Shown: in pieces, positions 1 through 19,288 of the stretch
Layout: each line of letters starts with the position of its first letter
Position numbering within the stretch: position 1 is the first letter of the stretch
From: Escherichia coli
Lineage (GTDB): Bacteria > Pseudomonadota > Gammaproteobacteria > Enterobacterales > Enterobacteriaceae
Strand: one strand, 5' to 3'
DNA: 64,000 nucleotides
Assembly (NCBI RefSeq): GCF_048403405.1
Contig: NZ_CP183129.1
Translations under genes and position numbers: made by a program
The notes under the pieces: model-generated
Databases searched by the model: none
Told to the model about the DNA's origin: nothing
The model's input: only the letters and a program-made list of their open reading frames with translations

Positions 1-634
1 CAGCGATTTTGCCAGTAACCCGGAACCACGTTGCCCCTGCATTTTGCTGCTGGATGTTTCTGGTTCTATGAACGGTAGACCTATTAATGAACTTAACGCC
101 GGATTGGTTACCTTTCGCGATGAGCTGCTTGCCGATTCGCTGGCCTTAAAAAGAGTGGAACTCGGCATTGTGACGTTCGGCCCGGTGCATGTGGAACAAC
201 CCTTTACCAGCGCCGCTAATTTTTTCCCGCCCATCCTGTTTGCCCAGGGCGATACACCAATGGGCGCTGCCATTACCAAAGCCCTGGATATGGTAGAGGA
301 GCGGAAACGTGAGTATCGTGCAAATGGTATTTCGTATTATCGCCCGTGGATTTTCCTGATCACCGATGGCGCTCCAACCGATGAGTGGCAGGCTGCCGCC
401 AACAAAGTGTTTCAGGGGGAAGAAGATAAGAAGTTTGCCTTCTTTTCCATCGGTGTTCAGGGGGCGGATATGAAGACTTTGGCACAAATCAGCGTTCGTC
501 AGCCTTTGCCACTGCAGGGATTACAATTCCGTGAACTGTTTAGCTGGTTATCCAGTTCGCTGCGTTCGGTTTCCCGCTCCACGCCGGGAACGGAAGTTGT
601 GCTGGAAGCGCCAAAAGGCTGGACGTCAGTGTGA
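1..634 (+). CDS. yegL: von Willebrand factor A (vWA) domain protein, 5' end outside window
   Basis: ORF 44..634 has no true start in window and reads in from the edge; LLDVSGSM motif resembles the vWA MIDAS DxSxS; stop overlaps yegK start. Confidence 0.75.
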
Positions 635-1392
635 GCTGGCGTCTGGTCTATGCATCAACCGTTGGAACGTCGCACATCAGCGCGGACTTGCCTTGCCAGG
701 ATGCCTGCCAGATGCAGGTTGCCTGGTTAAATGACCAGCAGCCATTATTGTCGGTATTTGTCGCCGATGGCGCAGGTAGCGTCTCGCAGGGTGGCGAAGG
801 TGCGGAGCTTGCCGTTAATGAAGCGATGGCTTATATGATGCAAAAATTGCAGGGCGGGGAATTGGGGCTTAATGATGTCCTCGCAACGGATATTGTGCTG
901 ACCGTTCGTCAGCGACTTTTTGCCGAGGCGGAAGCCAAAGAATTAGCTGTTCGCGATTTTGCCTGCACGTTTATGGGATTGATTTCATCAGCTAATGGCA
1001 CCCTGATTATGCAGATTGGCGATGGCGGCGTGGTGGTAGATTTGGGGCACGGTCTGCAACTGCCGCTCACGCCGATGGTAGGTGAATATGCCAATATGAC
1101 ACACTTCATTACTGATGAAGATGCCGTTTCCAGACTGGAAACTTTCACCAGCACTGAGCGTGCGCATAAAGTTGCAGCATTTACGGATGGTATCCAGCGG
1201 CTGGCGTTAAATATGCTGGATAATTCTCCCCATGTGCCTTTCTTTACCCCGTTTTTCAATGGGCTGGCGTCAGCAACGCAGGAACAACTCGATTTATTAC
1301 CTGAATTGTTAAAGCAGTTTTTGTCCAGCCCGGCGGTAAACGAGCGTACGGATGATGATAAAACGTTGGCACTGGCGCTGTGGTTACCATGA
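631..1392 (+). CDS. yegK: PP2C-family Ser/Thr protein phosphatase
   Basis: 253-aa ORF; FVADGAG and DGGVVVD motifs typical of PP2C fold; GTG start overlaps yegL stop; stop overlaps yegI ATG (ATGA). Confidence 0.75.
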
Positions 1393-3329
1393 AACCCACT
1401 TTATATACTGCTACTGGTGAGTGCGTTACGCCAGGCTGTGAACTGGGCAAAGGTGGCGAAGGCGCGGTTTATGATATCGAGGAGTTTGTCGATAGCGTCG
1501 CCAAGATTTATCACACGCCGCCACCCGCCTTAAAACAGGACAAACTTGCCTTTATGGCTGCGACAGCTGACGCACAGTTGCTGAATTATGTCGCCTGGCC
1601 GCAGGCAACGCTTCACGGTGGACGAGGCGGAAAAGTTATCGGTTTTATGATGCCAAAAGTTTCTGGTAAAGAACCGATTCATATGATCTATAGCCCGGCA
1701 CATCGTCGCCAGAGTTACCCTCATTGTGCGTGGGATTTTCTACTCTATGTTGCGCGTAATATTGCTTCATCTTTTGCTACGGTTCACGAGCACGGGCATG
1801 TCGTGGGTGACGTAAACCAGAACAGCTTTATGGTAGGCCGTGACAGCAAAGTGGTGTTGATTGATAGCGACTCCTTTCAGATTAACGCCAACGGCACACT
1901 GCATTTATGCGAAGTCGGCGTGTCGCATTTTACGCCGCCAGAGCTGCAAACCTTGCCATCATTTGTCGGCTTTGAACGCACCGCGAATCACGATAATTTT
2001 GGCCTTGCGTTGCTGATTTTTCACGTCTTGTTTGGTGGTCGGCATCCTTATTCCGGTGTACCGCTTATCTCTGATGCGGGTAATGCGCTGGAGACGGATA
2101 TTGCCCATTTCCGTTATGCCTACGCGTCAGATAATCAGCGACGTGGTTTAAAACCGCCGCCACGATCTATTCCGCTGTCGATGTTACCGGGCGATGTTGA
2201 AGCCATGTTTCAGCAGGCATTCACGGAAAGTGGCGTGGCAACCGCGCGTCCGACGGCAAAAGCGTGGGTAGCGGCACTTGATTTACTACGCCAACAGTTA
2301 AAGAAATGTACCGTTTCGGCAATGCATGTTTACCCCGGTCATTTGACTGACTGCCCGTGGTGTGCGCTGGATAATCAAGGCGTTATCTATTTTATTGATC
2401 TCGGCGAAGAGGTCATTACCACCGGCGGTGATTTTGTGCTGGCGAAAGTCTGGGCAATGGTGATGGCGTCAGTAGCACCACCAGCATTGCAACTGCCATT
2501 ACCCGATCATTTCCAACCGACTGGCAGGCCGCTTCCTTTAGGCCTGTTACGGCGTGAATACATCATTCTGATTGAGATCGCACTGTCAGCGTTATCGCTG
2601 CTGCTTTGCGGCCTTCAGGTAGAACCGCGTTATATCATTTTGGTTCCCGTGCTGGCGGCTATCTGGATTATTGGCAGCCTGACAAGCAAAGCGTACAAAG
2701 CAGAAATCCAGCAACGTCGTGAGGCGTTTAATCGCGCGAAAATGGACTATGACCATTTAGTAAGCCAGATCCAACGGCTGGGCGGGCTGGAAGGTTTTAT
2801 CGCCAAACGGGCGATGATCGAAAAAATGAAGGACGAAATTCTCGGGTTACCGGAAGAGGAGAAACGCGCTCTGGCAGCACTTCATGACACTGCAAGGGAA
2901 CGGCAGAAGCAGAAGTTTCTGGAGGGATTTTTTATTGATGTTGCCTCTATTCCCGGCGTTGGCCCTGCGCGTAAAGCGGCGTTACGGTCTTTTGGTATTG
3001 AAACAGCCGCAGATGTTACCCGTCGTGGCGTTAAGCAAGTGAAAGGGTTTGGCGACCATCTGACCCAGGCGGTTATCGACTGGAAAGCGAGTTGTGAACG
3101 CCGTTTTGTGTTCAGGCCGAACGAAGCGGTAACGCCTGCAGACAGACAAGCGGTACTGACTAAAATGGCCGCCAAACGACATCGGCTGGAATCGACGTTG
3201 ACTGTCGGCGCGACAGAGTTGCAGCGATTCCGCCTTCAAGCTCCAGCACGGACCATGCCGTTGATGGAACCGTTACGTCAGGCGGCAGAAAAACTGGCTC
3301 AGGCGCAGGCTGAATTAAGCCGTTGCTGA
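1380..3329 (+). CDS. yegI: Ser/Thr protein kinase-like membrane protein with C-terminal helix-hairpin-helix region
   Basis: 649-aa ORF; N-terminal kinase-like GKGGEGAVY glycine loop and HGDV/DSDSF motifs; two hydrophobic segments mid-protein; tandem GhG hairpins (IPGVGPARKAAL, VKGFGDHL) near C-terminus; alternative ATG start at 1389. Confidence 0.75.
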   Translation: MVTMKPTLYTATGECVTPGCELGKGGEGAVYDIEEFVDSVAKIYHTPPPALKQDKLAFMAATADAQLLNYVAWPQATLHGGRGGKVIGFMMPKVSGKEPIHMIYSPAHRRQSYPHCAWDFLLYVARNIASSFATVHEHGHVVGDVNQNSFMVGRDSKVVLIDSDSFQINANGTLHLCEVGVSHFTPPELQTLPSFVGFERTANHDNFGLALLIFHVLFGGRHPYSGVPLISDAGNALETDIAHFRYAYASDNQRRGLKPPPRSIPLSMLPGDVEAMFQQAFTESGVATARPTAKAWVAALDLLRQQLKKCTVSAMHVYPGHLTDCPWCALDNQGVIYFIDLGEEVITTGGDFVLAKVWAMVMASVAPPALQLPLPDHFQPTGRPLPLGLLRREYIILIEIALSALSLLLCGLQVEPRYIILVPVLAAIWIIGSLTSKAYKAEIQQRREAFNRAKMDYDHLVSQIQRLGGLEGFIAKRAMIEKMKDEILGLPEEEKRALAALHDTARERQKQKFLEGFFIDVASIPGVGPARKAALRSFGIETAADVTRRGVKQVKGFGDHLTQAVIDWKASCERRFVFRPNEAVTPADRQAVLTKMAAKRHRLESTLTVGATELQRFRLQAPARTMPLMEPLRQAAEKLAQAQAELSRC

Positions 3330-3341
3330 GCCAGTTTTCAA

Positions 3342-4694
3342 TTAACGAAACACCACTTCCGCCCAGCGTGCCAGCCCGGCGGTGACGGAGCCAAAGTCAT
3401 CGCCGCCTGCAATCGGAATGCCCGGCAACTGTTCTGCCAGCGCCTTTTTAATCAGCGGTGAACGGGCGCTACCGCCGGTCAGGTAGATAACGTCCGGTTT
3501 TTCCTGGGCGTTATCCAGGGCCAGTTGCACCTGTTCCAGAATCCGCGCCAGTGGCTGGCTGAGGGCGCTTTCCAGCCCTTGCTGGCTAATCAGCGTAGCC
3601 AGTTCATCGCTGATAAACGGCAGTGAGGCGCGGGTTTCCGCTACGCTTGAAAGCGCAATTTTGCTCTCTTCTGCGCTACGTACCAGGCGATAGCTTAAAC
3701 GCTGACGCCAGACTTTCTGTAACAGGGCCACTTTTTCCGGTTCGCGGGCATCGCGTACCAGATCGTTAAGCAGACGACCGTTGGCACTACTGTAGAAATC
3801 ACTTTGCGCAGGGACGTCGTTGATGGCAACCGCATTCCACCACGGCAGAATCGGCAGGGCGATGCCTTTTTCGGTTTCGCCCCCCATGCCCAGTAACGGC
3901 ATCAGGTTTTTAAACGCCAGTGCGATATCCAGATCGTTACCGCCAATACGGCAACCACTGTGACCCAGCAGGCTGGCTTCACGATCGAGACGCGAACGCC
4001 ACTGCGGCCCCATCAGCAGCAATGAACAGTCAGTCGTACCACCGCCGATATCCACCACCAGCACCCGTTTTTCTTCCTGCAAGGTGGCTTCGTAATCCAG
4101 CCCAGCCGCGACCGGCTCGTACTGGAATACCACATCCTTAAACCCGGCACGCTTCGCCGCGCGTTCCAGAATCCCCTGCGCCTGGGTGTTTGCTTCATCG
4201 CCGCCAAGCCCCTGGAAGTTGATAGGGCGACCAATTACCGCCTGAGTAATCGCATCCGGCAGCTGTGCCTGCGCCTGCTGGCGAATGTGCAACATCATTG
4301 CGCAGACCAGATCCTCAAACAGCGCTACCTGCTGCGGTTTTAAGCCGCTGGCACCGAGGAACGATTTTGGTGATTTCACAAACCACACTTCTTCTGGATC
4401 ATCAATGTACTGTGCCAGTGAGGAAAGACCGAACTGCACGCTTTTCGCCGTAACATCGATATCTTCTTCGCGGTTATAACGAATCGCCCGACGCAACAGC
4501 GCCTGCGTTTCATCGTCGTCTGCCGGAACATCATGATGGCGGTACAGCCATTCGCTTACCGCTTCACGCGTTGGCGCGCAAAGCATTGAAGGCAGCAGCG
4601 TGCTGTCGTTTTCCATTTTCAGTAATTGCGGCTTACCGTCGCGCATGACCGCCACTGAACAGTTTGCTGTACCGTAATCAAAACCAATAAACAC
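3342..4694 (-). CDS. yegD: Hsp70/actin-fold ATPase family protein
   Basis: ORF 3342..4757; likely GTG start at 4694 (VFIGFDYGTANCS, DnaK-like N-terminus); VVDIGGGTTDCS motif. Confidence 0.8.
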   Translation of the reverse strand: MFIGFDYGTANCSVAVMRDGKPQLLKMENDSTLLPSMLCAPTREAVSEWLYRHHDVPADDDETQALLRRAIRYNREEDIDVTAKSVQFGLSSLAQYIDDPEEVWFVKSPKSFLGASGLKPQQVALFEDLVCAMMLHIRQQAQAQLPDAITQAVIGRPINFQGLGGDEANTQAQGILERAAKRAGFKDVVFQYEPVAAGLDYEATLQEEKRVLVVDIGGGTTDCSLLLMGPQWRSRLDREASLLGHSGCRIGGNDLDIALAFKNLMPLLGMGGETEKGIALPILPWWNAVAINDVPAQSDFYSSANGRLLNDLVRDAREPEKVALLQKVWRQRLSYRLVRSAEESKIALSSVAETRASLPFISDELATLISQQGLESALSQPLARILEQVQLALDNAQEKPDVIYLTGGSARSPLIKKALAEQLPGIPIAGGDDFGSVTAGLARWAEVVFR

Positions 4695-4827
4695 GAAATA
4701 ATCCCCATGCCGGTGAAGAAGGGGCGTGACTTTAGCGAAATGTTGCCGTCGCGACAACCGGAATATGAAAGCAAAGCGTAGCGTCTGAATAACGTTTATG
4801 CTGAAAGCGGATTAACAAGGAGATGCG

Positions 4828-5685
4828 ATGTATACCCTGAACTGGCAGCCGCCGTATGACTGGTCGTGGATGTTGGGATTTCTCGCCGCCCGTGCGGTGA
4901 ACGGTGTGGAAACGGTCGCTGACGATTATTATGCCCGTAGTCTGGCGGTGGGCGAATATCGCGGCGTGGTGACTGCTATTCCGGATATAGCCCGCCATAC
5001 TCTGCACATAAATTTAAGTGCAGGTTTAGAACCTGTTGCCGCAGAGTGTCTGGCGAAAATGAGCCGCCTGTTTGATCTGCAATGTAACCCGCAGATTGTT
5101 AACGGTGCGTTGGGCAAGTTAGGCGCGGCGCGGCCCGGATTGCGTTTACCCGGCAGTGTTGATGCTTTTGAGCAGGGCGTGCGGGCGATTTTAGGCCAAC
5201 TGGTGAGCGTGGCGATGGCGGCAAAATTGACCGCCAGAGTGGCACAGCTTTATGGCGAACGGCTGGATGATTTTCCGGATTATGTCTGCTTCCCCACGCC
5301 TCAGCGGCTGGCAGCAGCCGACCCGCAGGCATTAAAAGCGTTAGGTATGCCGTTGAAACGGGCAGAGGCGCTGATTAATCTGGCAAATGCGGCGCTGGAG
5401 GGCACCTTACCAATGACAATTCCGGGCGACGTAGAGCAAGCGATGAAAACGCTGCAAACTTTTCCGGGTATCGGGCGCTGGACGGCGAATTATTTCGCCT
5501 TACGTGGCTGGCAGGCGAAAGATGTTTTCCTGCCGGATGATTATCTGATTAAACAGCGATTTCCGGGAATGACACCGGCACAAATCCGCCGTTATGCCGA
5601 ACGCTGGAAGCCCTGGCGTTCTTATGCGCTGTTGCATATCTGGTATACGGAAGGCTGGCAACCAGACGGAACGGACGAATTGTAG
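4828..5685 (+). CDS. alkA: 3-methyladenine DNA glycosylase II
   Basis: 285-aa ORF matching AlkA N-terminus MYTLNWQPPYDWSWML and HhH-GPD region. Confidence 0.9.
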   Translation: MYTLNWQPPYDWSWMLGFLAARAVNGVETVADDYYARSLAVGEYRGVVTAIPDIARHTLHINLSAGLEPVAAECLAKMSRLFDLQCNPQIVNGALGKLGAARPGLRLPGSVDAFEQGVRAILGQLVSVAMAAKLTARVAQLYGERLDDFPDYVCFPTPQRLAAADPQALKALGMPLKRAEALINLANAALEGTLPMTIPGDVEQAMKTLQTFPGIGRWTANYFALRGWQAKDVFLPDDYLIKQRFPGMTPAQIRRYAERWKPWRSYALLHIWYTEGWQPDGTDEL

Positions 5686-12599: not shown

Positions 12600-12908
12600 C
12601 TAAGCAGCATGTGGATATTGAATTTCAATACGTTGAATATGCAATCCTGCATGAGCCATCATGGTGATCAATTTATCGATACTAAAGATCTGGATCTTAC
12701 CTCTGGCAAGTTCAGATATGCGAGGTTGAGTGACCCCTAAAGCAGACGCTGCCTGGGCCTGGCTAAACCCTTGTTGTTCAATCCAGTTATTAATGATCGT
12801 TACAAGTTCGGCACGGATCCGCATATTTTCCGCTTGTTCAGGGGTGTCACTCACCGCATCCCACACACTATCAAAGGTTTCAATTTTCATTTTTCCGCTC
12901 CTGAACAA
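12600..12908 (-). CDS. HTH XRE-family antitoxin (HigA-like)
   Basis: 102-aa ORF with HTH FSQAQAASALGVTQPRISELARGK; overlaps the 3' end of the upstream toxin ORF; alternative start at 12890 (MKIETF). Confidence 0.7.
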   Translation of the reverse strand: MFRSGKMKIETFDSVWDAVSDTPEQAENMRIRAELVTIINNWIEQQGFSQAQAASALGVTQPRISELARGKIQIFSIDKLITMMAHAGLHIQRIEIQYPHAA

Positions 12909-13218
12909 GTTCTTTATAGCGTCGTTTGGCTAAATCAACATCCGATTGACTGGTAGTCTGTGTTTTCTTTTGAAAACAATGCAATACGTAAACCGCTTCT
13001 TCAAATTTTGCGATATACATGACGCGATAGATCCCATCAGCATCGCGAGTACGAATCTCTCGCACACCAGGGCCGATAGTTGAAAAAGGTTTCCAGTCGT
13101 ATGGGTTTAACCCTTGTTGGATCCTGTCGAGTTGATAGCCAATTTCCTGTCGAGACGATTCTGGAAATGCGCGTAAATCGTCAAGACTGGTATCAAGAAA
13201 AGCCAGCTTTTTTCTCAT
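12880..13218 (-). CDS. RelE/ParE-superfamily toxin (HigB/Gp49-like)
   Basis: 112-aa basic protein directly upstream of and overlapping an XRE antitoxin (toxin-first HigBA-type order); AGGA ribosome-binding site and TATAAT -10 upstream. Confidence 0.6.
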   Translation of the reverse strand: MRKKLAFLDTSLDDLRAFPESSRQEIGYQLDRIQQGLNPYDWKPFSTIGPGVREIRTRDADGIYRVMYIAKFEEAVYVLHCFQKKTQTTSQSDVDLAKRRYKELVQERKNEN

Positions 13219-13253
13219 TACTCCATCCTTAGATTATACTAAATTTTGTATAA

Positions 13254-13286
13254 ATCAAATGCGCAGTTTGAACCTGCGCATTTGAT
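13254..13286. promoter_or_regulatory. Perfect 13-bp inverted repeat (candidate TA operator and/or yegH terminator)
   Basis: atcaaatgcgcag-tttgaac-ctgcgcatttgat, just upstream of the toxin -10 (TATAAT) and just downstream of the yegH stop. Confidence 0.45.
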
Positions 13287-13292
13287 GTTTTA

Positions 13293-14876
13293 TCACACTT
13301 CGTACTCCATCTCGCCATCCTTACGTAGCGGAATAATTTGCACCTTCTGCACGCGATGGCTTTCCACCTGCAACGTTTTAAGCAAATAATCCCCCACCTG
13401 AACTTCTTCGCCAGGTTTTGGAATACGCTGCAAATATTCCATCAATAGCCCGGCAATGGTGTGATATTCACGTTTTTCATCCAGCGGCAGCGGCACATAT
13501 TGCACCAGATCTTCCAGCGGCATATGACCATTCGCCGTCCAGGAACCGTCGGCATTCTTCTGAATATCATGGCGGGCGTCGATCTCTTCCACTTCATTCG
13601 GTAAGTTACCGGCAATGGTTTCTGTGACGTCACTTAATGTCACAATCCCTTCCACCGAGCCAAACTCATCCACTACAAAAGCAAAGTGTGTGCGGGCATT
13701 ACGGAACTGCTCCAGGGCAGGTAACAACGGCAAGGTTTCCGGGAACACCAGCGGCTGGCGAATCAACACCCGCAGGTTGAGCGGTTCGCCGCGCAGTGAC
13801 TGTTGTAGCAGGTCGATAACGTGAACAACACCGAGCAAATCTTCCGCGTCATCGCCATCAGTAACCACCAGTCGCGTGTGCTGATTTCGCTCCAGCAACT
13901 GGCGGATCTCGTCTTCCGGCGCGTTGAGATCGATATGCTCAATATCGTGGCGCGACGTCATAATGCTGCTGACGGTACGCTGGTTAAGATTAAGTACCCG
14001 CTCAATCATCCGCCGTTCCTGCGGATTAAAGATTTGCTGGTTACCATGATCCACCAGCATAGACGCGGTTTCGGCGTCCAGTTCCGCATCTTCTTTTTGC
14101 CCGCTAAGCAGGCGCATTACCGCTTCGGTAGTCCGCTGGCGCAGCGTCTGGTTAGCGGAAAGAAAACGTCGCCGGTTAAAGATAGCCAACTGATTGAGCG
14201 CCTCGATCATCACCGAGAAACCAATAGCAGCGTACAGGTAGCCTTTCGGAATGACGAAGCCGAAACCTTCTGCCACCAGGCTAAAGCCAATCATCAACAG
14301 GAAGCTTAAGCAGAGAATAACGATCGTCGGGTGACTGTTAACAAATTGCGTTAACGGCTTGCTGGCCATCAACATCAGGCTGATAGCGATAACGACGGCG
14401 GCCATCATGACCAGTAAATGGTCGACCATCCCGACGGCGGTAATCACCGAGTCGAGTGAGAAGATGGCGTCCAGTACCACAATTTGTGTCACCACCCCCC
14501 AGAACTTCGCACCTTTGCGTTGTGTGGGGTTATTGCTGTCTTTCCCCTCCAGCCGTTCGTTCAGCTCCATCGTGGCTTTGAACAGCAGGAAGAAACCACC
14601 AAACAGCATGATTAAATCGCGGGCGCTAAAGGTAAACGAGCGGAAGCTGAACAGCGGTTGAGTCAGGGTGACCAGCCAGGAGATTGACGCCAGCAGTAAC
14701 AGGCGCATTAACATCGCCAGCAGCAGCCCGGTAACCCGTGCGCGGTCGCGCTGCTTCGGCGGTAGTTTTTCGGCGAGGATGGCAATAAAGACCAGGTTAT
14801 CAATGCCGAGGACCAGTTCGATCACAATCAGCGTGATTAACCCGGCCCAGATAGACGGATCGGCAATCCATTCCAT
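13293..14876 (-). CDS. yegH: TerC/CBS/CorC-domain inner membrane protein
   Basis: ORF 13293..14942; likely start [10 protein letters not shown] at 14876 (527 aa); TerC-like TM region plus CBS pair. Confidence 0.85.
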
Positions 14877-15534: not shown

Positions 15535-16674
15535 ATGATGAAATCCAAAATGAAATTGATGCCATTATTGGTGTCAGTAACCTTGATAAGCGGTTGCACA
15601 GTACTTCCGGGCAGCAATATGTCGACGATGGGGAAAGACGTCATCAAACAGCAGGACGCTGATTTCGATCTCGACAAAATGGTGAATGTTTATCCGCTGA
15701 CCCCGCGCCTGATTGATCAATTACGCCCACGCCCCAACGTAGCGCGCCCCAATATGACGCTGGAAAGCGAGATCGCGAATTACCAGTATCGCGTCGGGCC
15801 GGGGGACGTTCTTAATGTCACCGTCTGGGATCACCCGGAACTCACCACGCCAGCCGGTCAGTACCGCAGCTCCAGCGACACCGGCAACTGGGTACAGCCT
15901 GACGGCACCATGTTCTACCCGTATATCGGCAAGGTTCACGTCGTGGGGAAAACGCTCGCTGAAATCCGCAGTGATATTACCGGGCGCTTAGCGACGTACA
16001 TCGCTGACCCGCAGGTGGACGTTAATATCGCCGCCTTCCGCTCGCAAAAAGCCTATATCTCCGGTCAGGTGAATAAATCCGGTCAACAGGCGATTACCAA
16101 CGTGCCACTGACCATTCTCGATGCCATCAACGCCGCAGGTGGCCTGACCGACACCGCTGACTGGCGCAACGTGGTGCTAACACACAATGGTCGTGAAGAG
16201 CGCATTTCTTTGCAGGCGCTGATGCAAAACGGCGACCTCAATCAGAACCGACTGCTTTACCCCGGCGATATTCTTTACGTGCCACGTAATGATGATCTGA
16301 AAGTGTTTGTGATGGGTGAAGTGAAGAAACAGAGCACCCTGAAAATGGACTTTAGCGGTATGACCCTGACTGAAGCCCTGGGTAATGCTGAAGGCATCGA
16401 CATGACCACCTCCAACGCCAGCGGCATCTTTGTCATTCGTCCGCTGAAAGGCGAGGGCGGGCGTAATGGCAAGATTGCCAATATCTACCAGCTGGATATG
16501 TCCGATGCCACGTCGCTGGTGATGGCGACAGAATTCCGCCTGCAACCTTATGACGTGGTGTATGTCACCACCGCCCCGGTTTCCCGCTGGAACCGTCTGA
16601 TCAATCAGTTGCTGCCAACTATTAGCGGTGTCCGTTACATGACGGATACAGCCAGCGACATTCATAACTGGTAA
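15535..16674 (+). CDS. wza: Colanic acid export outer membrane lipoprotein
   Basis: 379-aa ORF with lipoprotein signal LISGC. Confidence 0.9.
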
Positions 16675-16679
16675 TCGTC

Positions 16680-17123
16680 ATGTTTAACAACATCTTAGTT
16701 GTCTGTGTCGGCAATATTTGCCGTTCTCCGACGGCGGAACGCTTACTGCAACGTTATCACCCGGAGCTAAAAGTGGAGTCCGCTGGACTCGGCGCGCTGG
16801 TCGGTAAGGGCGCTGATCCTACCGCTATCAGCGTCGCCGCAGAACATCAACTGTCTCTGGAAGGTCACTGTGCACGGCAAATCAGCCGCCGCCTGTGTCG
16901 CAACTACGACCTGATTTTGACCATGGAAAAGCGCCATATCGAACGCTTATGCGAGATGGCACCCGAGATGCGCGGCAAAGTGATGCTGTTTGGTCACTGG
17001 GATAACGAATGTGAAATCCCCGATCCGTATCGCAAAAGCCGGGATACGTTTGCAGCGGTGTACACATTACTTGAACGGTCTGCCCGCCAGTGGGCGCAGG
17101 CATTGAACGCAGAGCAGGTATAA
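16680..17123 (+). CDS. wzb: Low-molecular-weight protein-tyrosine phosphatase
   Basis: 147-aa ORF with CVGNICRS P-loop. Confidence 0.9.
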   Translation: MFNNILVVCVGNICRSPTAERLLQRYHPELKVESAGLGALVGKGADPTAISVAAEHQLSLEGHCARQISRRLCRNYDLILTMEKRHIERLCEMAPEMRGKVMLFGHWDNECEIPDPYRKSRDTFAAVYTLLERSARQWAQALNAEQV

Positions 17124-17125
17124 GA

Positions 17126-19288
17126 ATGACAGAAAAAGTAAAACAACATGCCGCTCCGGGAACGGGCAGTGATGAAATCGATATTGGTCGCCTGGTCGGC
17201 ACCGTCATTGAAGCGCGCTGGTGGGTAATTGGCATCACCGCCGTATTTGCCCTCTGTGCCGTGGTTTACACCTTCTTCGCCACGCCGATTTATAGTGCCG
17301 ACGCACTGGTACAAATCGAGCAAAACAGCGGCAATTCGTTAGTGCAGGACATTGGTTCGGCATTAGCCAACAAACCGCCAGCATCGGACGCCGAGATCCA
17401 GTTGATTCGTTCGCGTCTGGTGCTTGGTAAAACGGTGGACGATCTCGACCTCGATATTGCAGTGAGCAAAAACACGTTCCCGATTTTCGGTGCGGGCTGG
17501 GATCGCCTGATGGGACGCCAGAACGAGACGGTAAAAGTGACCATCTTTAACCGCCCGAAAGAGATGGCGGATCAGGTGTTTACGCTTAATGTGCTGGACG
17601 ATAAAAACTACACTCTGAGCAGCGATGGCGGCTTTAGCGCCCGTGGGCAAGCGGGCCAGATGCTGAAAAAAGAAGGCGTCACGCTGATGGTTGAAGCTAT
17701 TCACGCCCGCCCGGGCAGTGAGTTTACCGTCACCAAATACTCCACGCTGGGGATGATCAATCAACTGCAAAACAGCCTGACGGTAACGGAGAACGGCAAA
17801 GACGCAGGCGTACTGAGCCTGACTTATACCGGTGAAGATCGCGAACAGATCCGCGACATTCTTAACAGCATCGCCCGTAACTATCAGGAACAAAATATTG
17901 AGCGCAAATCGGCGGAAGCGTCGAAAAGCCTCGCTTTCCTCGCGCAACAGTTACCGGAAGTACGTAGCCGCCTTGATGTTGCCGAAAACAAACTGAATGC
18001 CTTCCGTCAGGATAAAGATTCTGTTGATCTGCCGCTGGAAGCGAAAGCGGTGCTCGATTCGATGGTGAACATCGACGCGCAGTTGAACGAACTGACCTTT
18101 AAAGAGGCGGAAATCTCCAAGCTGTACACCAAAGTTCACCCGGCGTACCGCACGCTGCTGGAGAAACGGCAGGCGCTGGAAGACGAAAAAGCCAAACTTA
18201 ATGGTCGCGTAACGGCGATGCCGAAAACCCAGCAGGAAATTGTCCGTCTGACCCGCGATGTCGAGTCTGGTCAGCAGGTCTATATGCAACTGCTGAATAA
18301 AGAGCAGGAGCTGAAAATCACCGAAGCCAGCACCGTCGGCGATGTGCGCATTGTTGACCCGGCAATCACCCAGCCTGGTGTGCTAAAACCGAAGAAAGGG
18401 CTGATTATCCTTGGGGCGATTATCCTCGGCCTGATGCTCTCTATCGTGGGTGTGCTGCTGCGCTCGTTGTTTAATCGCGGCATTGAAAGCCCGCAAGTGC
18501 TGGAAGAACACGGCATTAGCGTTTATGCCAGCATCCCGCTGTCGGAGTGGCAGAAAGCGCGCGATAGCGTCAAAACCATCAAAGGGATTAAACGCTATAA
18601 ACAGAGCCAGCTACTGGCGGTGGGGAATCCAACCGATCTGGCGATTGAAGCCATCCGTAGTCTGCGTACCAGTCTGCACTTTGCGATGATGCAGGCACAG
18701 AACAATGTGTTGATGATGACCGGGGTTAGCCCGTCAATCGGTAAAACCTTTGTCTGCGCCAACCTGGCGGCGGTGATTAGCCAGACCAATAAACGGGTGT
18801 TGTTGATCGACTGCGATATGCGCAAAGGCTACACCCACGAGCTGTTGGGCACTAATAACGTTAATGGCCTGTCGGAAATTCTGATTGGACAGGGCGATAT
18901 TACTACCGCTGCTAAACCGACCTCTATTGCCAAATTTGACCTGATCCCGCGCGGTCAGGTGCCGCCAAATCCTTCTGAACTGTTAATGAGCGAACGCTTT
19001 GCCGAACTGGTGAAGTGGGCGAGTAAAAACTACGACCTGGTGTTGATTGATACGCCGCCGATTCTGGCAGTGACCGATGCGGCAATTGTTGGTCGTCATG
19101 TCGGAACCACGTTGATGGTGGCGCGTTATGCGGTCAACACATTGAAAGAAGTGGAAACCAGTCTGAGCCGCTTTGAGCAAAACGGTATTCCGGTGAAAGG
19201 GGTGATTCTGAACTCCATCTTCCGCCGCGCCAGCGCGTATCAGGATTATGGCTATTACGAATACGAATATAAGTCGGATGCGAAATAA
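17126..19288 (+). CDS. wzc: Tyrosine autokinase / polysaccharide co-polymerase
   Basis: ORF 17090..19288; start MTEKVK at 17126; Walker A GVSPSIGKT; C-terminal Tyr-rich tail YQDYGYYEYEY. Confidence 0.9.
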   Translation: MTEKVKQHAAPGTGSDEIDIGRLVGTVIEARWWVIGITAVFALCAVVYTFFATPIYSADALVQIEQNSGNSLVQDIGSALANKPPASDAEIQLIRSRLVLGKTVDDLDLDIAVSKNTFPIFGAGWDRLMGRQNETVKVTIFNRPKEMADQVFTLNVLDDKNYTLSSDGGFSARGQAGQMLKKEGVTLMVEAIHARPGSEFTVTKYSTLGMINQLQNSLTVTENGKDAGVLSLTYTGEDREQIRDILNSIARNYQEQNIERKSAEASKSLAFLAQQLPEVRSRLDVAENKLNAFRQDKDSVDLPLEAKAVLDSMVNIDAQLNELTFKEAEISKLYTKVHPAYRTLLEKRQALEDEKAKLNGRVTAMPKTQQEIVRLTRDVESGQQVYMQLLNKEQELKITEASTVGDVRIVDPAITQPGVLKPKKGLIILGAIILGLMLSIVGVLLRSLFNRGIESPQVLEEHGISVYASIPLSEWQKARDSVKTIKGIKRYKQSQLLAVGNPTDLAIEAIRSLRTSLHFAMMQAQNNVLMMTGVSPSIGKTFVCANLAAVISQTNKRVLLIDCDMRKGYTHELLGTNNVNGLSEILIGQGDITTAAKPTSIAKFDLIPRGQVPPNPSELLMSERFAELVKWASKNYDLVLIDTPPILAVTDAAIVGRHVGTTLMVARYAVNTLKEVETSLSRFEQNGIPVKGVILNSIFRRASAYQDYGYYEYEYKSDAK

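Follow-up and report, generated by a model that had tools for sequence, protein, structure and literature searches.

YegI belongs to the small set of Ser/Thr/Tyr protein kinases known in Escherichia coli, about eight in all, and is encoded in a tight cluster with a PP2C phosphatase and a vWA protein. What is this triad for? We addressed the question in a stretch of 64,000 nucleotides of E. coli DNA (assembly GCF_048403405.1, contig NZ_CP183129.1), hereafter the window, which matches the chromosome of E. coli WP4-S18-ESBL-07 (NZ_AP022087.1) with 100% identity and begins inside the triad. The locus is known, not new: it is the already named E. coli operon yegL-pphC(yegK)-yegI. An earlier note on the window had described a TerY-P-type vWA/phosphatase/kinase switch with essentially unknown input and substrates, and for the E. 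coli triad this description of input and substrates is still true in the searchable literature. Our analysis led to the reading that yegL-pphC-yegI is a self-contained phosphorylation switch of the TerY-P type, possibly a conflict or defence module, to which we give a probability of roughly 0.5. The new observations are the cross-phylum order of the cassette, the conservation of the vWA-PP2C overlap, the lack of a fourth gene, the defence neighbourhoods, the blind spot of PADLOC for this family, and the near-universality of the triad in E. coli together with the purifying selection on it there. The features on which the analysis is built are the following.

-25..634 (1..634 inside the window), plus strand: yegL, 219 amino acids in full (RefSeq annotation)
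53-55, plus strand: codon of YegL D27, a residue of the metal ion-dependent adhesion site (MIDAS)
631..634, plus strand: GTGA stop/start overlap of yegL and pphC; pphC begins with the GTG, and the TGA ends yegL
631..1392, plus strand: pphC (formerly yegK), encoding a 253-amino-acid PP2C-family Ser/Thr phosphatase (RefSeq, Pfam)
1389..1392, plus strand: ATGA stop/start overlap of pphC and yegI; yegI begins with the ATG, and the TGA ends pphC
1389..3329, plus strand: yegI, 646 amino acids (RefSeq annotation)

The first 26 nucleotides of yegL lie outside the window, and position 1 is the window edge, with no gene start there. The listing of open reading frames (ORFs) offers an alternative in-frame GTG for yegI upstream, at 1380; RefSeq and published work start the gene at the ATG at 1389.

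The three proteins form a TerY-P-type triad

Bell et al. (PMC11090510) summarise the TerY-P systems defined by Anantharaman, Iyer and Aravind in 2012: a Ser/Thr kinase fused at its C-terminus to a zinc ribbon is combined with a PP2C phosphatase and with a vWA protein resembling TerY. They are described there as often adjoining restriction and DNA-processing genes, and a metal-dependent phosphorylation switch has been proposed for them (PMC11090510, PMC4978471). All four structural features were found here, namely a vWA protein with a MIDAS, an operonic PP2C, a Hanks-fold kinase and a predicted C-terminal zinc ribbon, and yegL-pphC-yegI was therefore filed as a TerY-P member. The match proposed in the earlier note was thus borne out, with YegL matching TerY proteins and the kinase carrying the predicted zinc ribbon. 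We consider it very nearly certain that yegL-pphC-yegI is a TerY-P-type triad with the enzyme activities of this class.

The vWA/MIDAS identity of YegL, also put forward in that note, held up: YegL matches the Pfam family VWA (E = 2e-9), and MIDAS residues D27, S29, S31, T94 and D131 are at least 97% conserved among 58 homologues. Four serines of its C-terminal tail (S193, S195, S200 and S202) are conserved to the same extent in these sequences. In translated searches (tblastn), 55-75% of the YegL sequence aligned, at 28-36% identity (E 1e-10 to 4e-16), with proteins encoded in tellurite-resistance operons on plasmids, and these plasmid proteins are annotated as TerY-C metal-binding-domain or vWA proteins. 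Judged from its residues, YegL is a TerY-like vWA protein whose MIDAS motif appears intact. It is also the most conserved member of the triad, with a mean identity to the E. coli protein of 66% versus 43% for YegK, and its archaeal versions are still 59-61% identical to E. coli YegL. A phmmer search against the Protein Data Bank (PDB) returned no match for YegL or YegK. We know of no biochemical study of yegL.

The phosphatase matches Pfam PP2C_2 (E = 1.8e-50). Its metal-binding residues D24, D46-G47, D131-G132 and D186-G187 are at least 97% conserved in the alignment of homologues, and the PP2C-like assignment stands. Rajagopalan and Dworkin (10.1101/303594) showed that PphC, an atypical member of the PP2C family, is active as a phosphatase, depends on Mn and removes phosphate from YegI. 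The K-12 protein is reported to be less active, the K and B versions being 92% identical.

Single-sequence searches were uninformative for YegI: the E. coli sequence alone had no Pfam kinase domain match, phmmer against the PDB gave only E > 0.06, and an NCBIfam search with the triad proteins found nothing above cut-offs. Profiles and structure prediction were therefore needed. A profile of 68 YegI homologues matched the PDB kinases TTK, RSK, BRAF and PknE with E of about 3e-6, and the AlphaFold2 model (pLDDT 93, pTM 0.80) superposed on PknB, BRAF, Aurora and other kinases with TM-scores of 0.6-0.73 in Foldseek. The two approaches agree on a kinase fold, in line with the kinase-like protein of the earlier note. 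The structural findings that the note had named as refuting its reading, a YegI without a kinase fold or a YegK without PP2C metal-binding residues, were thus not made. Within the fold, the catalytic loop VGDVNQNS (139-146) and the motif DSD (159-161) replace HRD and DFG, and K39, D141, N143, D159, D161 and S162 are invariant in the 68 homologues. Published biochemistry showed that YegI is an active, Mn2+-preferring Ser/Thr kinase that needs K39, D141 and the DSD loop (Rajagopalan and Dworkin, 10.1101/819920). It autophosphorylates on serines, Ser162 being essential, with second-order kinetics that suggest oligomerisation, and PhoA-LacZ fusions placed it in the inner membrane as a two-pass protein with both termini in the cytoplasm (10.1101/819920).

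The biochemistry of PphC and YegI was thus published in 2018 and 2020 (10.1101/303594, 10.1101/819920). The earlier note had called the switch predicted bioinformatically; as a description of this locus that is out of date, since the activities of PphC and YegI, the dephosphorylation of YegI, its topology and the ATGA overlap are all in the literature.

Along the yegI gene, the following elements were distinguished.

1389..2288, plus strand: kinase domain (residues 1-300), atypical Hanks-type; invariant residues, profile, AlphaFold2/Foldseek and published activity
2295..2378, plus strand: zinc-ribbon-like element (residues 303-330) with C307, H313, C322 and C325
2553..2693, plus strand: transmembrane hairpin (residues 389-435); hydropathy, AlphaFold2 helices 389-408 and from 418, and published topology
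2694..3323, plus strand: C-terminal module (residues 436-645), an antiparallel coiled-coil stalk with a small domain at its tip
2931-3101, plus strand: putative helix-hairpin-helix motif (residues 515-571), two G-hydrophobic-G hairpins at the stalk tip

Neither the four zinc-ligand candidates nor W324 vary among the 68 sequences, which are 33-62% identical, and the element was modelled confidently as two short strands and a helix; YegI is thus predicted, from sequence and model, to carry a C-H-C-C zinc ribbon after its kinase domain. Hydropathy and the model join the two membrane helices by a periplasmic loop of about 5 residues, and an extracytoplasmic ligand-binding sensor domain is absent. 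The small domain at the stalk tip, with its two glycine hairpins, weakly matches a helix-hairpin-helix family. A profile of the C-terminal module against the PDB gave heptad-repeat noise. The kinase of the cassette invariably combines the predicted zinc ribbon, the sensor-less hairpin and the stalk with its putative tip motif.

Variation on this architecture was seen among relatives of YegI. Some are 860-1160 amino acids long, with extra C-terminal sequence; on a Trichormus plasmid a YegI-type kinase core is fused to WD40 repeats; and on Agrobacterium plasmids the module of stalk and putative helix-hairpin-helix stands alone as a hypothetical protein.

Gene order and the vWA-PP2C overlap are conserved across phyla

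At E <= 1e-3, 9554 cluster representatives were of the YegI type, and 3187 still matched at E <= 1e-30; the majority are full length, at about 646 amino acids. Among about 100,000 species genomes, at least 574 encode a relative. We mapped the two upstream genes at 80 loci of different species encoding YegI relatives. The order vWA-PP2C-kinase was the same in all 71 loci with enough upstream sequence, in bacteria and archaea alike. Clustering of all flanking ORFs of the 80 loci revealed no conserved fourth gene, only lineage-specific neighbours: the commonest cluster beyond the triad occurred in 17 of 76 loci and was partly an artefact, all others were found in 7 or fewer, and a number of seeming clusters were artefacts made up of antisense ORFs in GC-rich DNA.

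The 4-nucleotide overlaps that the earlier note had read at both junctions, GTGA at 631..634 and ATGA at 1389..1392, were confirmed from the sequence and RefSeq; the second is mentioned in 10.1101/819920. A single overlap of this kind is ordinary. It occurs in 10 of the 49 same-strand adjacent pairs of coding sequences in the window, others being found in the colanic acid, O-antigen and his operons. What gives the first junction its weight is conservation of the overlap across phyla rather than the overlap itself. Among the 71 loci scorable for it, vWA and PP2C genes overlap by 4 nucleotides in 64 and by 1 nucleotide in 6, and are separated by 2 nucleotides in the remaining one; these loci span Burkholderiales, Pseudomonas, Frankia, Paenibacillus, Acidobacteria, Synergistaceae and the archaeal Methanomicrobiales. 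The PP2C-kinase junction is tight everywhere but variable, at -4 in 15 loci (Escherichia, Klebsiella, Frankia, Paenibacillus and some others), -17 in 12 and mostly between -50 and +28 in the rest.

It is therefore reasonable to infer that translation of yegL and pphC is coupled, and coupling of pphC to yegI seems less assured. The claim that all three genes are almost certainly co-translated was too strong for the second pair, because 36% of E. coli genomes have lost that junction.

The cassette outside Escherichia is mobile and often lies near defence genes

Outside Escherichia, the cassette was found on megaplasmids of Pseudomonas, Ralstonia and rhizobia and beside Tn7-like genes; a collection of 50,697 phage genome records gave one weak match. 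Recognised defence-related genes lay within 8-9 kb in 12 of 17 non-Escherichia neighbourhoods, a count made with no matched control, and 9 or 10 of the 17 remain once methyltransferase-only and candidate-only cases are dropped. The evidence came from Pfam-annotated neighbourhoods and from PADLOC applied to the five largest flanking ORFs. In the Pfam neighbourhoods we found GmrSD in three and type I restriction-modification in three, as well as BrxR with JetB, AbiH with a KAP NTPase, Mrr, and a NERD-kinase with an MmeI-type enzyme. PADLOC detected in the flanks Avs2 (2449 bits), type I restriction-modification in one more neighbourhood, Gabija GajB (736 bits) together with a CBASS cyclase (427 bits), the candidate PDC-S01 and DNA methyltransferases.

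A basic ORF of 69 amino acids (MKFGMRKPS...GWGWLTNPKRAAYNRVY...), 80-87% identical between loci, precedes the triad by 300-800 nucleotides in three betaproteobacterial or metagenomic loci (L005 5719..5928, L008 6075..6284 and L009 618..827). E. coli lacks this ORF, and a search of NCBIfam found no family for it.

Relation to known systems

Like the TerY-P systems of 2012, yegL-pphC-yegI is a vWA/PP2C/zinc-ribbon kinase set in one tight operon. Such cassettes are likewise mobile between lineages and, outside Escherichia, may also share the frequent position near restriction or DNA-processing genes. Unlike them, YegI continues past the zinc ribbon: a membrane hairpin follows, then a coiled-coil stalk that ends in a putative helix-hairpin-helix. 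The E. coli triad stands alone, without a McrBC/CoCoNuT, helicase or nuclease partner.

A TerY-P variant described by Gao et al. (2020) defends against T7-like phages, its kinase ending in an OB fold (PMC11090510). It resembles the E. coli triad in being a three-gene vWA/PP2C/kinase cassette that works alone and in the putative nucleic-acid-binding C-terminus of its kinase, and differs in having an OB fold where YegI has the zinc ribbon, transmembrane hairpin, stalk and putative helix-hairpin-helix. The E. coli triad is distinct from this defence variant.

The PADLOC family nearest to the YegI kinase core is PD-T4-6, a single-gene kinase defence system. The match is weak (E 7e-7 to 2e-4) and confined to the catalytic core, PD-T4-6 having no vWA or PP2C partner and no membrane/stalk module. 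The staphylococcal abortive-infection kinase Stk2 is likewise a single-gene system without a vWA or PP2C partner or such a module. Both would offer a precedent for a kinase as anti-phage effector.

With the pairs PknB/PstP, PrkC/PrpC and PpkA/PppA, the triad shares the kinase fold, activation by autophosphorylation and a co-operonic PP2C that dephosphorylates the kinase. These kinases have HRDxxPxN and DFG where YegI has VGDxxQxS and DSD; YegI lacks PASTA or any other extracytoplasmic sensor, and in the triad a cytoplasmic protein of its own supplies the vWA domain. A vWA domain is also part of PpkA, which belongs to the type VI secretion pathway. On IncHI2 and Klebsiella plasmids, the TerY proteins encoded in ter operons have the vWA/MIDAS domain in common with YegL. 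Unlike YegL, they sit within ter operons (three matching places per plasmid record), uncoupled to a PP2C or kinase, and the annotated ones carry the TerY-C metal-binding domain.

The locus is nearly universal and variable within E. coli

Of 5426 complete E. coli genomes, 5416 carried the triad, and its position was fixed, between the ibs/sib toxin-antitoxin repeats and yegD. A gene on the opposite strand, yegJ, lies in a 725-bp insert between pphC and yegI in 1934 of these 5426 genomes (36%), K-12-type strains included; the insert occupies 4393..5117 of a K-12-type locus (L002) and is absent from the window. Both the ATGA overlap and the insertion in K strains had been published. Strains of the yegJ type also have a different pphC 3' end and a yegI 5' end encoding MKTNIKVF... 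instead of MKPTLYTA..., so that, on sequence comparison, the junction of the yegJ variant is best described as replaced, and not merely as interrupted by an insert.

Among six divergent E. coli alleles, the ratio of nonsynonymous to synonymous divergence (dN/dS) was 0.06 for yegL, 0.14 for yegK and 0.13 for yegI, with 0.04-0.06 for the flanking genes mdtA and yegD. These low ratios indicated that the triad genes are maintained by selection. The mean synonymous divergence of yegK was 0.225 in these alleles, about 2.5 times the 0.085-0.09 of mdtA and yegD, which echoes the published 92% identity of the K and B proteins. Recombination at this gene, or allelic lineages of long standing, may lie behind it.

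In the E. coli genomes sampled, the annotation shows each of the three ORFs as intact. Exceptional structures are a pphC 6 codons shorter in strain AW1.7, a clean deletion of the triad in E. coli 19-5 (NZ_CP047010.1) that left the last 108 nucleotides of yegI, and yegI reading frames that seem interrupted in some Escherichia loci (L016, L017).

Upstream of the triad, ibs/Sib type I toxin-antitoxin units are present in variable copy number: three in tandem at the locus studied here (L001 5023..5828; Rfam SIB_RNA, 140-146 bits), two in a K-12-like strain, and one together with an ISEc13 insertion in E2348/69. These three Sib RNAs were the only Rfam matches at the locus, and none fell inside the triad. 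The base composition of the triad (GC 51-52%, versus 49% for the whole window) gave no clear sign of foreign origin.

A switch that may act in defence

How could the three proteins work together? Translational coupling through the overlapping genes would fix their ratio. As the published work shows, YegI activates itself by phosphorylation of Ser162, probably between neighbouring molecules, and PphC reverses the reaction. Through its MIDAS metal, YegL could hold on to a partner at an acidic or phosphorylated segment and in this way gate the switch, the ligand being either the kinase activation loop or the conserved serine-rich tail of YegL itself once phosphorylated. The membrane hairpin would serve only to position YegI, since the protein has no sensor outside the membrane, and the domain at the stalk tip might contact nucleic acid near the membrane. 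As a sensor-effector system, the triad would act by letting activated YegI phosphorylate host or invader proteins, with PphC keeping the kinase silent in uninfected cells until a trigger arrives.

Defence against phages or other invading DNA is our leading explanation for the role of this switch, at odds that reach even at best. We base it on the gene context in other organisms, where the association of the triad with defence genes is suggestive. Further arguments were counted in its favour. By analogy, a related TerY-P-like triad is reported to have been validated by experiment as an anti-phage system; the occurrence of the cassette on megaplasmids and beside Tn7-like genes, together with its near-absence from phages, is suggestive of such a role; overproduction of YegL or of YegI each raised endogenous DNA damage in E. 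coli; and the triad is under purifying selection in E. coli.

Several observations weigh against a defence role. The neighbourhood counts lack a matched control, and some of them comprise only methyltransferases or candidate systems. The E. coli triad itself behaves as a core gene would, unlike a defence island: it occupies its one fixed site in nearly every genome, and the annotation of the window places no defence genes beside it. The TerY-P models of PADLOC made no assignment for the E. coli triad (E up to 10) or for three distant triads (E up to 0.1); its 'TerY' model reached only the sub-threshold range of E = 0.013-0.024 with the vWA proteins of these four YegLKI-type triads, and their phosphatases and kinases had no match. 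Structure searches with the C-terminal module of YegI found only coiled-coil analogues (e.g. SMC hinges with their coiled coils), and the helix-hairpin-helix assignment is weak; a DNA-binding function of the stalk tip is therefore a tentative proposal. No phage phenotype of yegL-pphC-yegI is reported in the searchable literature, and no condition for robust expression was found in the published studies (10.1101/303594, 10.1101/819920). A paper of 2026 likewise describes the locus as barely expressed and yegJ as specific to K strains. Finally, the genome-wide screen in which YegL and YegI raised DNA damage also picked up the neighbouring membrane proteins MdtA and MdtB, so the effect may be non-specific and we gave it little weight.

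The strongest competing explanation is that the triad does housekeeping signalling in E. coli, unrelated to phages: the kinase and phosphatase, with YegL as adaptor, would regulate an ordinary process such as stationary-phase physiology, the state of the envelope or DNA-damage handling, in the manner of PrkC/PrpC or PknB/PstP. We regard this explanation as the less probable of the two, with perhaps a minority chance of being correct. It would account well for the near-universal, fixed position of the triad in E. coli and its synteny in other Escherichia, for purifying selection resembling that on the flanking genes, for the lack of adjoining defence genes and for the weak stationary-phase expression reported for the locus; kinase/PP2C operons are, moreover, commonly regulatory. 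It fits poorly with the cassette outside Escherichia, which occurs in unrelated contexts, on plasmids and near transposons, mostly among defence genes, and whose distribution is patchy across phyla including archaea at 34-62% identity. The lack of a YegI sensor domain outside the membrane and the roughly 2.5-fold excess of synonymous divergence in yegK also speak against it.

Less likely than either defence or housekeeping is a sensor of metal or tellurite stress, the role first suggested for TerY proteins, in which the MIDAS of YegL would read the metal and the kinase and phosphatase would transmit the signal to resistance functions; we consider it improbable. The resemblance of YegL to TerY of tellurite-resistance operons and the preference of both enzymes for Mn2+ suggested this possibility, the window also contains yegH, a gene of the TerC family about 10 kb from the triad, and TerY-P has been hypothesised to be a metal-sensing switch (PMC11090510). 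No ter gene, nor any other, is conserved beside the triad in 76 loci, and yegH is unlinked to the triad outside Escherichia. MIDAS sites generally use their metal to bind a protein ligand and not to sense metal concentration, which counts against such a sensor. The least probable alternative, a silent relic acquired once by an Escherichia ancestor and now unexpressed and eroding, could draw on the lack of detected robust expression in published work, the second junction disrupted in 36% of genomes with a replaced yegI 5' end in K-12-type strains, the lower activity of K-12 PphC, and the rare clean deletions and apparently interrupted yegI frames (L016, L017), but was rejected on dN/dS values of 0.06-0.14, which point to ongoing purifying selection among the six divergent alleles, and is further opposed by the ORFs annotated intact in sampled genomes, the retention of every catalytic, MIDAS and zinc-ligand residue and the published activity of the purified proteins.

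Returning to defence, a bolder version would make YegLKI the founding member of a very large TerY-P clade, with thousands of sequence clusters from bacteria and archaea, and a working anti-phage or anti-plasmid system of the E. coli core genome that defence-finding tools miss. In such a system the stalk-mounted helix-hairpin-helix of membrane-tethered YegI would detect DNA entering at the inner membrane, while YegL and PphC would hold the kinase off. Since the laboratory strains of E. coli B and K-12 both have the triad, decades of phage work would have been done against the background of its effect. We think it unlikely that this version is correct in full.

The comparative picture of an autonomous mobile cassette, usually among defence genes and with the vWA protein as its most constrained part, makes the question of function testable. 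Should the triad prove to act in defence, the defence catalogue would gain a system that almost all E. coli possess, and with it a family spanning bacteria and archaea. If not, the triad remains an ordinary, already described kinase/phosphatase operon.

Neighbouring genes and other features of the window

Downstream of the triad, yegI and yegD converge.

3327..3344, no strand: convergent ends of yegI (stop 3327-3329, plus strand) and yegD (stop 3342-3344, minus strand), with 12 nucleotides between them

No terminator-like hairpin was seen between the two stops in our scan, and the counts of the promoter and terminator scan were no different from those of shuffled sequence. The yegI and yegD transcripts would overlap unless terminated within the neighbouring gene.

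Linkage of the triad to yegD was found only within Escherichia. A link to yegD or yegH was considered and rejected, neither gene being linked to the triad outside this genus. The TerC-family gene yegH lies at 12839..14422 on the minus strand, and its proximity is probably a coincidence.

In the window, alkA (4828..5684, plus strand) is annotated as a frameshifted pseudogene; the ORF at 4828..5685 encodes 285 amino acids with an altered C-terminus, and an intact 849-nucleotide alkA was found in four other sampled E. coli strains. A second phosphatase/kinase pair, wzb (low-molecular-weight Tyr phosphatase) and wzc (Tyr kinase), belongs to the colanic acid cluster at 16226..18834 on the plus strand. 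Colanic acid genes, an O7-type O-antigen cluster and the his operon make up the remainder of the window.

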